In this document: positions 20,712 through 26,900 of the stretch, in pieces | Position numbering within the stretch: the stretch's first letter is position 1 | How the letters are laid out: every line of letters starts with the position of its first letter | Assembly (NCBI RefSeq): GCF_032191835.1 | Contig: NC_083227.1 | Location: forward strand, 17,484,001-17,548,000 | Direction of reading: 5' to 3' | DNA length: 64,000 nt | Source of the DNA: Heteronotia binoei | Taxonomy: Eukaryota | The notes under the pieces: generated by a model | What the model was told of the DNA's origin: nothing | Seen by the model: the letters and a program-made list of their open reading frames with translations, nothing else | Databases searched by the model: none | Program-made: the position numbers and the translations under genes

Positions 20712-22690
20712 GGGATGATTGGCAGAACAAGGAGGATGAGGATCTGCATTTTCTATCAGCAGATGAAAACCAGAATGAAGATATGAGGGGAAACATCAGG
20801 AATCAAGAAAGACCTAAGAGGCAGAAAGGCAGCCATGTGGTTAAGAAGAGGGGCAAACCCATTCCTTATCTAAGGGAGGATTTCCAAGACATCATTCTCA
20901 TGGTAGAGGAAAAAGAGAAGAGCTTGGAGTGTGGAAGGAACATCTCAGACCAAACCCAATGTAATGTCCATTTACAAAGGTACAGTGGAACAAACACTCA
21001 TCAATGCTTGGAGACTGGAAAGACCACGATTCACAGAGCAGAGCTCCATAAACATCAAAGATCACATACAGGAGAGAAACCTTATAGGTACTTAGGCTGC
21101 AGCAAGAGCTTCTCCAAGACATCAGACCTTGTTCAGAACCACAGCATTCACTCAGAAGAGAAGCAGTTTATCTGCTCAGAGAGTGGAATGGTGTTCTCTG
21201 CTGGAAGAAAGCATAATGTACACTTCCCAAAGCCAAGTATAATGAAGGCACATAAGTGCTTTCAGTGTGGAAAATACTTCAGAAAAAGATCACATCTCAT
21301 TGCTCACCAAAAGATCCACAGAGAGAAAGAGTTCAAATGCTCAGAGTGTGGAAAGAAATTCAGTTGGCGTGGCCATCTTAAAGAGCATCAACGAACCCAC
21401 ACAGGGGAGAAGCCTTTTGAATGCTCAGAGTGTGGGAAGAGATTCAGTTGGAGTGGCACTCTTCAAAAGCATCGAGTAACTCACACAGGGGAGAAGCGCT
21501 TTGAATGCTCAGAGTGTGGGAAGAAATTCAGTCACAGTTATGGTCTTCAAAATCATTTAAGAATCCACACAGGAGAGAAGCCCTTTGAATGTTCAGAGTG
21601 CGGGAAGAGATTCCGTAGAAGTGACACTCTTCAAGAGCATCAACGAATCCACACAGGAGAGAAGCCCTTTGAATGCTCAGAGTGTGGGAAGAGATTCAGT
21701 TGGAGTGGCACTCTTCGACATCATCTAAGAACCCACACAGGGGAGAAGCCCTTTGAGTGCTCAATTTGTGGGAAGAGATTCTGTTGGAGTGGCCCTCTTC
21801 AACAGCATCAACGAACCCACACAGGAGAGAAGCCCTTTGAATGCTCAGAGTGTCAGAAAAGATTCAGTTCTAGTAGCATTCTTCGAAGACATTTAAGAAC
21901 CCACACAGGGGAGAAGCCCTTTGAATGCTCAGAGTGTGGGAGAACGTTCAGTCAGAGTAGCCATTTACGACAGCATCTAAGAACCCATACAGGGGAGAAG
22001 TCCTTTAAATGCCCAGAATGTGGGAAGAGGTTCAGTGAGAGCGGCTATTTTGAAGAGCATCAAAAAACCCACACAGGGGAGAAGCCTTTTGAATGTTCAG
22101 TATGTGGGAGGACATTCAGTCAGAGTAGCCATTTACAACAGCATTTAAGAACCCATACAAGGGAGAAGCCCTTTAAATGCTCAGAGTGTGGGAAGAGATT
22201 CAGTTGGAGTGGCACTCTTCAACATCATCTAAGAACCCACACAGGGGAGAAGCCCTTCGAATGCTCAGTTTGTGGGAAGAGGTTTAGTTGGACTGCCTCT
22301 CTTCAACAGCATCAACGTACCCACACAACAGAGAAGCCCTTTGAATGCTCAGAGTGTGGAAAGAGATTCAGTCATAGTAGCACTCTTCAACATCATCAGG
22401 GAACCCACACAGGGGAGAAGCCCTTTGAATGCTTAGAGTGTGGGAAGAGATTCAGTCGGAGTAGCACTCTTCAACAGCATCAACAAACCCATACAGAGGA
22501 GAAGCCGTTTGAATGCTCAGAGTGTGGGAGGAGATTCCGTCGGAAAGGCACTCTTCAACAGCATCAACAGACCCATACAGGGGAGAAACCCTTTGCATGC
22601 TCAGAGTGTGGGAAAACGTTCAGTCGGAGTGGTACTCTTCAAGAGCACCAAAGAACTGTTGGAGCAAGAATCTACATAAACCCAGTCTGA
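20712..22690 (+). CDS. Gene B zinc-finger exon: 16 intact C2H2 fingers, 17th cut by an LTR
   Basis: ctagcag acceptor in phase 1; regular [12 protein letters not shown] repeats; ends HQRT plus LTR-derived [14 protein letters not shown]. Confidence 0.9.
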
Positions 22691-23054
22691 CAGCTACAGT
22701 ATGACAGCTGGTGATCTAGCTGCCAGGCTAGGTCACAGTAACCTGATCAGCAGACCGGCTTGAGCCGGCAGAAGCCAAGTGATGCAATCTGCTGAGTCAG
22801 CACGGCCAGGATTGGCTGCTTGGACTATATATGATCTGTGTGTGCATCACACAGGTCTCTCCCTGTGAGATGGTGGTTAGGCGAAGCACTTTGTCCGTGG
22901 AGGTGATATTGTATAGACTGCACAAGAGAGCACTTGTCGTGTATATATGTTAATACACCTTTTGGCACTAGTTGCACGTGTCTGCCTGATTTTCTTTCCT
23001 GAAGCCCTGTGTCGGGCAAGTCATCTCCCTCACTCTGCTACTCCCGCTCCGACA
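22657..23054 (+). repeat. 5' LTR
   Basis: tgttggagcaag...ctccgaca; no difference from 25978-26375 seen by eye; TATA-like tatata at ~22826. Confidence 0.95.
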
Positions 23055-23055
23055 G

Positions 23056-23069
23056 GGTTATGGGCCCAG
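23056..23069 (+). promoter_or_regulatory. Primer-binding site, copia type (internal tRNA-iMet fragment)
   Basis: ggttatgggcccag immediately after the 5' LTR. Confidence 0.85.
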
Positions 23070-25892: not shown

Positions 25893-25977
25893 ATATGAAC
25901 TGTAATGTTGCTGGTGGACATGTATGTAAACTGTGTAAAGTGTTTTGGTGCACTGGGTTTAAATAGATTAGGAGGTG

Positions 25978-26375
25978 TGTTGGAGCAAGAATCTACATAA
26001 ACCCAGTCTGACAGCTACAGTATGACAGCTGGTGATCTAGCTGCCAGGCTAGGTCACAGTAACCTGATCAGCAGACCGGCTTGAGCCGGCAGAAGCCAAG
26101 TGATGCAATCTGCTGAGTCAGCACGGCCAGGATTGGCTGCTTGGACTATATATGATCTGTGTGTGCATCACACAGGTCTCTCCCTGTGAGATGGTGGTTA
26201 GGCGAAGCACTTTGTCCGTGGAGGTGATATTGTATAGACTGCACAAGAGAGCACTTGTCGTGTATATATGTTAATACACCTTTTGGCACTAGTTGCACGT
26301 GTCTGCCTGATTTTCTTTCCTGAAGCCCTGTGTCGGGCAAGTCATCTCCCTCACTCTGCTACTCCCGCTCCGACA
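25978..26375 (+). repeat. 3' LTR, preceded by PPT agattaggaggtg
   Basis: Direct repeat of 22657-23054. Confidence 0.95.
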
Positions 26376-26900
26376 AGAACCCACACAGCGGAGAAGCCTT
26401 TTGAATGCTCAGCTTGTGGGAAGAGATTCAGCTGGAGTGGTACTCTTCAAAAGCATCAGCGTACCCACACAGTGGAGAAACCCTTTTAATGTTCAGAGTG
26501 TGGGAACACACTCAGTCGGAGTGGTACTCTTTAACAGCATCAACAAACCCATAAGTGGTGAAAGCTTTTGAATAATCAGAGTGTAGGAAGATGTTCAGTC
26601 ACAGTGGCACTCTTCAACAGCACCTAAGAAACCATATGGGGAGAAACTTTTATGTATTTTCATTTTATTTTTCAAATTTATGTTCTGCCCTCCCCACAAG
26701 TGGATTTAGGGCAGATTACAGACAAACTTTTCAATGCTCAAAATGTGGGATTCAATCACAGAAGCAGTCTTCAGCACTTCTAAGAACCCATAAAAGGGAG
26801 AAGAGTGTGGGAAGAGATTCAGTTATAGTGGCACTCTTTGAAAACATTTTTGAAAAACCACAGGTGAATGTGCAAAGGAAATCAGGTGGAACAGCACTCT
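26376..26900 (+). pseudogene. Gene B orphaned finger 18 (stop 26487-26489) and further fossil fingers
   Basis: [41 protein letters not shown] continues the pre-insertion frame; degenerate finger repeats follow. Confidence 0.85.

Follow-up and report, generated by a model that had tools for sequence, protein, structure and literature searches.

Results

An LTR retrotransposon in the zinc-finger exon of a SCAN-KRAB gene

The 64,000-nt stretch of Heteronotia binoei contig NC_083227.1 analysed here (the window) carries gene B, a member of a tandem cluster and of the SCAN-KRAB-C2H2 type; among named proteins, its best full-length relatives come from geckos. Its SCAN, KRAB-A and C2H2 exons lie in order on the forward strand: the coding part of exon 1 (12821..13243) encodes the SCAN domain (PF02023), exons 2 (13472..13586) and 3 (15013..15081) are followed by the KRAB-A exon (15285..15405; PF01352, E = 8e-22), and the zinc-finger exon, up to the insertion described below (20709..22656), encodes a spacer, fingers 1-16 and finger 17 minus its second His. 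Fingers are numbered by counting canonical C2H2 motifs from position 21257, and many of them have Trp at position -1. The SCAN exon and the frameshifted exon 3 are absent from the initial annotation of this DNA, as is the loss of RT and RNase H from the inserted element.

Exon 2, at 115 nt, is equal in length to that of paralogue C, and exon 3 has 69 nt versus 71 nt in all three neighbouring paralogues, a difference made up of two separate 1-nt deletions. The canonical five-exon mRNA of gene B runs into a stop at codon 206, ahead of KRAB; that of paralogue C stays open. For SCAN, KRAB and the fingers to share a single open frame, non-canonical skipping, of exon 2 or of exons 2 and 3, or the use of cryptic sites is required. 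The peptide encoded by exons 2 and 3, which spans 66-79 residues from the end of SCAN to KRAB, is kept in every named gecko paralogue for which the two domains could be placed (16 of 24 examined), and comparison of gene B with paralogue C gives dN/dS of 0.18-0.28 in SCAN, exon 2 and KRAB. Because both exon-3 deletions shorten a homopolymer run, an assembly error is possible there. These comparisons suggest that gene B was functional until recently, and that today it may carry two disabling lesions, bypass them by splicing, or be assembled wrongly at exon 3.

The initial annotation had described an LTR retrotransposon with a perfect target-site duplication in the coding exon of a KRAB zinc-finger gene, and this description is confirmed: an element of 3,719 bp (22657-26375) with TGT...ACA ends lies in the sense orientation to gene B, separating the two His residues of canonical finger 17, and is flanked by the 5-bp duplication AGAAC (22652..22656 and 26376..26380, forward strand). 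The LTR alignment that it had proposed as a check shows 398 of 398 bp to be identical between the 5′ LTR (22657..23054) and the 3′ LTR (25978..26375), both on the forward strand. Its account of the coding consequences proved exact when the frames of both alleles were read: the occupied allele loses the second His of finger 17, gains 10 residues from the 5′ LTR before a TGA stop (22688-22690) and leaves finger 18 orphaned. The stranded end of the host exon (26381..26489, forward strand) contains this His and finger 18 (26406-26468), which, in the frame read without the element, is followed by the native TAA (26487-26489). A search for an empty allele with the downstream flank returned one full match in the assembly, that is, one copy of the locus, and polymorphism of the insertion is plausible.

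The occupied allele would yield at most a 16-finger protein, from a transcript that is likely polyadenylated in the 5′ LTR. Given such a product and a SCAN-to-KRAB frame that was probably already broken, the insertion is likely to have been near-neutral for the host. The initial annotation had raised the possibility that gene B was silent before the element arrived: the exon-3 frameshift, which may predate or postdate the insertion, goes part of the way towards this.

A Ty1/copia element without RT

The element has the direct TG...CA LTRs and 5-bp duplication of Ty1/copia, and perfect 5-bp duplications are also found at 70 of the 74 other copies that we fetched. Directly after the 5′ LTR is a primer-binding site (PBS), GGGTTATGGGCCCAG (23055..23069, forward strand), which we take to be of the half-molecule tRNA-iMet type of copia and hemiviruses. 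Half-tRNA-Met priming is described as confined to Ty1/copia lineages in a section of PMC6317226. At the other end, the polypurine tract (PPT) region (25953..25977, forward strand) falls within the last ~54 internal bases, which are common to the RT-bearing partner.

Between these sites is a single open frame of 886 codons (23232..25892, forward strand) encoding copia Gag (PF14223), protease (PF22936), GAG-pre-integrase, integrase core (PF00665) and SH3-like domains. The best solved relatives are Ty1 integrase and the Copia VLP protein. RVT_2 and RNase H, looked for as Pfam domains in this frame, are both absent. The integrase is also without four residues at the position of the D-35-E glutamate (about 24957) and has no third catalytic Glu; the long form of the element keeps this Glu, 36 residues after the second Asp, at a position that aligns to HGVAER of Ty1 integrase. 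The window copy is thus gag-protease-integrase alone and lacks the RT, RNase H and intact D-D-35-E of an autonomous copia, whereas a 4,832-bp partner has the full copia order of gag-protease-integrase-RT-RNase H.

A second copia element lies nearby on the reverse strand (27616..30040, left end approximate). It belongs to a different, older family, is 5′-truncated, has a SINE inside and is itself RT-deleted, with integrase joined to the end of RNase H. In this family two further independent RT deletions have spread as copies beside RT-bearing members, so RT loss recurs in the copia of this genome. Splicing was considered as the origin of RT loss in the older family and rejected: comparison with three RT-bearing copies reveals no GT-AG ends at the junction. 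This comparison covers the neighbouring family, the junction of the window family being too diverged.

A recent burst, mostly of RT-less copies

We searched the 2.63-Gb genome with the LTR and fetched 39 other top-scoring matches, a sampling by score that favours young copies. Short copies of 3,713-3,731 bp account for 33 of the 39, and the other six are long (4,832-4,833 bp). The 1,293-codon frame of the long copies also encodes RVT_2, which scored E = 5e-59 in a 4,832-bp copy sharing this LTR. Of the 33 short copies, 30 still have a frame of 865 codons or more. Exact 27-nt motifs were then counted genome-wide: the RT-less tail has 561 matches, the integrase-deletion site 537, RT 89 and the LTR start 1,309, and reversed control motifs have none. 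By these exact motifs there are ~650 elements, 86% of them RT-less (RT-less to RT-bearing, about six to one), and almost no solo LTRs (1,309 LTR starts versus 561 + 89 internal motifs). An annotation based on RT would overlook that 86%.

The initial annotation had called the insertion very young, which several observations support. Beyond the 0 of 398 differences between its LTRs and the near absence of solo LTRs, it has near-identical sister copies, the nearest of 28 ungapped short copies differing at 7 of 3,719 sites, and LTR pairs are identical in 30 of the 39 others (5/6 long and 25/33 short, in this top-scoring sample). Since short and long copies alike mostly have identical LTRs, the RT-less form was active at the same time as its partner. 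Pooled LTR divergence is 17 in 15,124 bp over 38 copies (L014, which has a damaged end, was excluded), which under assumed rates corresponds to about 0.1-0.6 Myr. For the window copy taken singly, LTR identity limits the age only to ~1-4 Myr, with rates assumed to lie between 4e-9 and 1e-9. The ~650 near-identical copies are a source of recent structural variation and of population markers.

We considered whether the hit on a zinc-finger gene was targeted. In the fetched flanks (~200 bp upstream and up to ~3 kb downstream), zinc-finger motifs occur at none of the 74 other copies, and the target sites of the copies display only a weak G...C preference. For 655 copies in 2.63 Gb, and with finger exons assumed to number 200-1,000 at 2 kb each, the chance of at least one such hit is P = 0.09-0.39. 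The initial annotation had raised, as a question, whether gene B targeted this family. The corresponding hypothesis is an arms race in which gene B acted as a silencer of these copia elements until the insertion disabled it, so that the element put its own repressor out of action and helped the burst. That gene B has an intact KRAB box and, once the element is removed, 18 intact fingers would fit this, as would the statement, in bioRxiv 2025.03.03.638093, that most human KZFPs target a TE subfamily. However, 16 of the 18 fingers remain, the canonical mRNA already ends before KRAB, and the window copy is not a founder of the burst: it is a single branch tip out of hundreds and carries four differences of its own. 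The KRAB of gene B also has MVE where paralogue C has MLE, which is important in KRAB. Furthermore, most human SCAN-ZFPs do not bind or recruit TRIM28, again according to a part of bioRxiv 2025.03.03.638093. With no zinc-finger motif in the flanks of the 74 other fetched copies, a chance probability of this size and a frameshift in exon 3, the silencer knockout is extremely improbable: nothing links gene B to this copia family, and silencing of the LTR by gene B is not supported.

It is also quite improbable that the insertion is a selected host change, in which the reduction from 18 to 16 fingers and the new LTR polyadenylation site gave gene B a new binding specificity kept by selection. The exon-3 frameshift and a chance expectation that is not small both speak against this, even though the element is in the last exon and in the same orientation and supplies an early in-frame stop, and although ERV insertions are reported, in passages of PMC12575710, to drive mouse KZFP diversification. 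We favour, at a probability of roughly 0.7, the reading that this is a very young RT-less Ty1/copia copy which landed by chance in a burst of ~650 and was moved by a partner that shares its LTR and has RT. The insertion is real, young and probably incidental and, taken alone, is an ordinary event.

Exchange between short and long forms

Alignment of short and long copies reveals two very different degrees of similarity. In nt 1-2300 of the element, and again in its final ~450 nt, identity is 97-100% per 100-bp window: 568 of the first 570 residues are identical, the LTRs are 99.7% identical and the PBS and PPT are the same, such that the short form has the PBS, LTR termini and promoter of its partner, as is expected of a semi-autonomous element. 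Between those parts (24935..25923 in the window copy, forward strand), identity falls to 56-74% per 100-bp window, save one 92% patch near 25357-25459, and dS in the C-half of integrase is about 1.3. Two of the 33 short copies have a long-type integrase C-half and switch to the short type at nt 2560 and nt 2740, and the RT-less tail motif outnumbers the integrase-deletion motif by 24 genome-wide. These mosaics have the pattern expected of template switching between co-packaged RNAs, through which they may have formed; the mechanism is reviewed in a section of PMC6894440.

A degenerate motif returned five matches (two for the control), of which two belong to the young subfamily and three to a second subfamily that is ~80% identical and has its own 408-bp LTR. 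With this LTR, 36 further loci were fetched: 33 are RT-less with the same tail, two have a single LTR and one is RT-bearing. The last, L113, has gag-protease deleted, and because it is the sole RT-bearing copy found in subfamily 2, the following four-way tree hangs on it. In eight chosen copies, the LTR and the integrase N-half cluster by subfamily, with identities of 0.98-1.0 inside a subfamily and 0.82-0.86 across the two, the LTR by itself giving 0.99+ and 0.82. The integrase C-half instead groups by RT state, the two RT-bearing types being 0.845 identical and the short and long copies of one subfamily 0.645; the C-terminal block described below aligns in full among the RT-less members of the eight only. 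The two subfamilies, as replicates, separate a swapped 5′ module from an inherited 3′ module, and the RT-less form would be an old lineage that persisted through at least one divergence of the LTRs. The catalytic Glu is kept in most of the subfamily-2 copies read and missing in some; as the copies that retain it include RT-less ones, a dead integrase is not universal to the lineage.

A conserved C-terminal block

The 3′ module contains an 82-codon block (25602..25847, forward strand) that occurs only in RT-less copies, of both LTR subfamilies, and that, judged from codon comparisons, is under purifying selection. It matches the RxSxR motif at the C-terminus of the partner's integrase, the EPxxYEE linker that precedes RT and the first RT helix, here remodelled, and then runs on into a charged tail. 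Comparing RT-less copies across the two subfamilies (pairwise Nei-Gojobori, over short stretches), we obtained dN/dS of 0.11 for gag, 0.15 for protease, 0.07 for the integrase N-half and 0.44 for its C-half, and of 0.08 for aa 796-840 (dS 0.82). In the tail, aa 841-877, dN/dS is 0.20, and conservation thus extends past the end of RT homology (Fisher P = 8e-4).

Within the block, 32 of the 48 differences are at third codon positions, and there are 16 amino-acid changes versus 31 in simulations (0 of 10,000 as low). Comparison without gaps or stops is possible for 29 of 35 subfamily-2 elements, each of which gives 15-17 changes in the block, and 82% of neutral simulations place a stop within it. 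Inside the young subfamily alone, the 17 synonymous variants versus 12.3 expected in the RT-less-only segment (29 ungapped copies) are not a significant excess (P = 0.08). The 5′ values could be imported from the partner by recombination; those of aa 796-840 and of the tail could not be, unless an unseen RT-bearing carrier supplies them. RT and the block never occur together, either in the 75 copies retrieved for the two subfamilies or in the five variant-motif matches.

From position 25710 on, AlphaFold, run without an alignment on the last 96 residues, predicts a single long helix (pTM 0.38). A Pfam search with the last 186 residues returned no family, and a search of the ESM Atlas gave no result. 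A protein search with residues 560-886 gave six matches among 2,680 candidates (lengths 487-1551), all of them distant copia polyproteins matching over 41-49% of the region, with the tail left without a relative.

The RT-less element could still be a plain parasitic deletion derivative that contributes nothing, with a frame that is open as the burst is young and a block that derives from, and is renewed through recombination with, an RT-bearing relative so far unseen. The two further RT-deletion junctions beside RT-bearing copies in the older family would agree with this, recombination with the partner demonstrably renews the 5′ module, and in this subfamily the integrase C-half is relaxed and the catalytic Glu lost. 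The features of the block point the other way, since it continues and stays conserved beyond RT homology, has not been seen with RT in any copy fetched and, in most neutral simulations, would have acquired a stop. We consider the plain derivative unlikely.

Discussion

The anatomy, copy counts, recombinants, tree discordance and selection on the RT-less protein are observations, from which we infer how an RT-bearing partner would mobilise the RT-less form. The RT-less RNA would give rise to a polyprotein of its own, Gag-protease-(dead integrase)-tail, and would be packaged with the RNA and enzymes of the partner, whose RT would copy it and whose integrase would insert the product. Through template switching in the mixed particles, the LTR, gag, protease and integrase N-half would remain almost the same as those of whichever partner is current; the 3′ module would descend from the old RT-less lineage. 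The recombinants and dN/dS values suggest that the RT-less protein may be made and used and that the element is probably mobilised in trans.

That the block is conserved only in the absence of RT suggests a dedicated function for the integrase-RT junction. It might serve particle maturation or the holding of the partner's RT and integrase, which we offer as a tentative suggestion. An equally speculative view of the whole lineage is that an old RT-less copia lineage of this lizard genome turned the integrase-RT junction into a selected module, with a charged helix that would recruit or process partner enzymes, and that it stays matched to the active RT-bearing family by taking over its LTR, gag, protease and integrase N-half; such an element would be satellite-like, with a gene product of its own, and about six times as numerous as its helper in an amniote. 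The block therefore bears on the open question of whether defective LTR elements are pure parasites or protein contributors.

Our search for an RT-less copia partner in reptiles found no report in the open literature, subscription journals and Repbase being outside its scope. Among squamates, the 5,832-bp Copia found in OCA2 and CLCN2 of the corn snake is likewise young, active and gene-disrupting, with 85 near-identical copies; unlike the insertion in gene B, those insertions are intronic and have known phenotypes, and the passages of PMC11948899 by whose description we compare the two mention no RT-less partner. Young KZFP clusters of mouse also contain LTR elements, in that case ERVs, within tandem arrays of KRAB zinc-finger genes. 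According to the relevant passages of PMC12575710, enrichment there came about largely via segmental duplication, whereas here there is a single fresh insertion of a family that is not enriched at such genes.

The remaining parallels are with plants. Du et al. are said to have described in 2010 how soybean SNRE amplified to high copy number and exchanged LTRs with its autonomous partner. Passages that cite the SNRE/SARE work (PMC4079214, PMC6894440) accordingly present a non-autonomous partner at high copy and LTR exchange, in a plant rather than a lizard. Wheat RLC_Angela, in the portions of PMC9744471 considered here, is also a copia in which the LTR tree pairs a non-autonomous group with its partner while the internal-domain tree differs, and partner switches by gene conversion or template switching have been proposed for it. 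Two differences from Angela, as those portions of PMC9744471 present it, stand out: the non-autonomous CDS of Angela is full of stops and frameshifts, whereas the RT-less frame here is open and appears to be partly under purifying selection, and here gag, protease and half of integrase are swapped together with the LTR. The semi-autonomous RLG_Sabrina_SA (PMC9744471, in part) and TR-GAG elements (PMC8704663 and PMC13570524, in part) share with the gecko element mobility and an intact Gag or Gag-protease frame without RT, some of them with an autonomous partner of the same family. Those elements are from plants, and Sabrina is a gypsy, whereas the present element, from an amniote, has integrase sequence and a conserved C-terminal block in the same frame; since it retains the integrase core and SH3-like domains, it is not a TR-GAG. 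By analogy with Angela, Sabrina_SA and TR-GAG, the family described here may work like the autonomous/semi-autonomous pairs of plants, and it would then provide a recently bursting vertebrate example of an LTR partnership that has been described mainly in plants.

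Zinc-finger genes of the cluster

In paralogue C (39143-51576, + strand), a neighbour of the interrupted gene B in the same tandem cluster, the exons for SCAN, linker and KRAB are all intact, and the finger exon has a 733-codon frame with 20 C2H2 motifs; identity to gene B is about 81%. Gene A, a SCAN zinc-finger gene in divergent orientation (1057-8349, - strand), has its fingers split over two frames, which suggests a frameshift. The KRAB exon start is altered and 3-4 nt shorter in both paralogues downstream of the window (L123:3922-4064 and L124:5291-5429), a further sign of decay or of a splice shift in the cluster.

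Directly upstream of the gene B SCAN exon lies an AT-rich element of ~1.6 kb (10602-12198), whose inverted arms of ~400 bp are 93% alike. Within gene B, an in-frame stretch of 126 nt (19271-19396, + strand) resembles the beginning of a finger exon and is a possible additional spacer exon.

Other transposable elements

The last intron of gene C holds, in sense orientation, an open endonuclease-RT frame of 866 codons (45602-48202, + strand), which we take to be CR1-like. A further endonuclease-RT frame, open over 1,061 codons (57066-60251, + strand), is presumably RTE/BovB-like. Also intronic in gene C is a Tc1/mariner-like element (42930-44526) with inverted repeats of ~245 bp (91%), whose transposase looks broken.

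The older copia at 27616-30040 (- strand), which belongs to a family other than that of the young element in gene B, is 5'-truncated, has lost its RT and contains a SINE (28646-28855) 96% like the sequence at 14225-14433. Its RT-deletion junction is common to 14 of its genome matches. Among its related copies (L072-L086), L077 and L079 bear RT; other copies of the family carry a second, different RT-deletion junction.

Subfamily 2, a mostly RT-less LTR subfamily ~80% identical to the young copia, includes a 3,487-bp element (L113, G000:C5:119264424-119267910) which has integrase, RT and RNase H, with gag and protease deleted. Its defect is the complement of that of the RT-less form.
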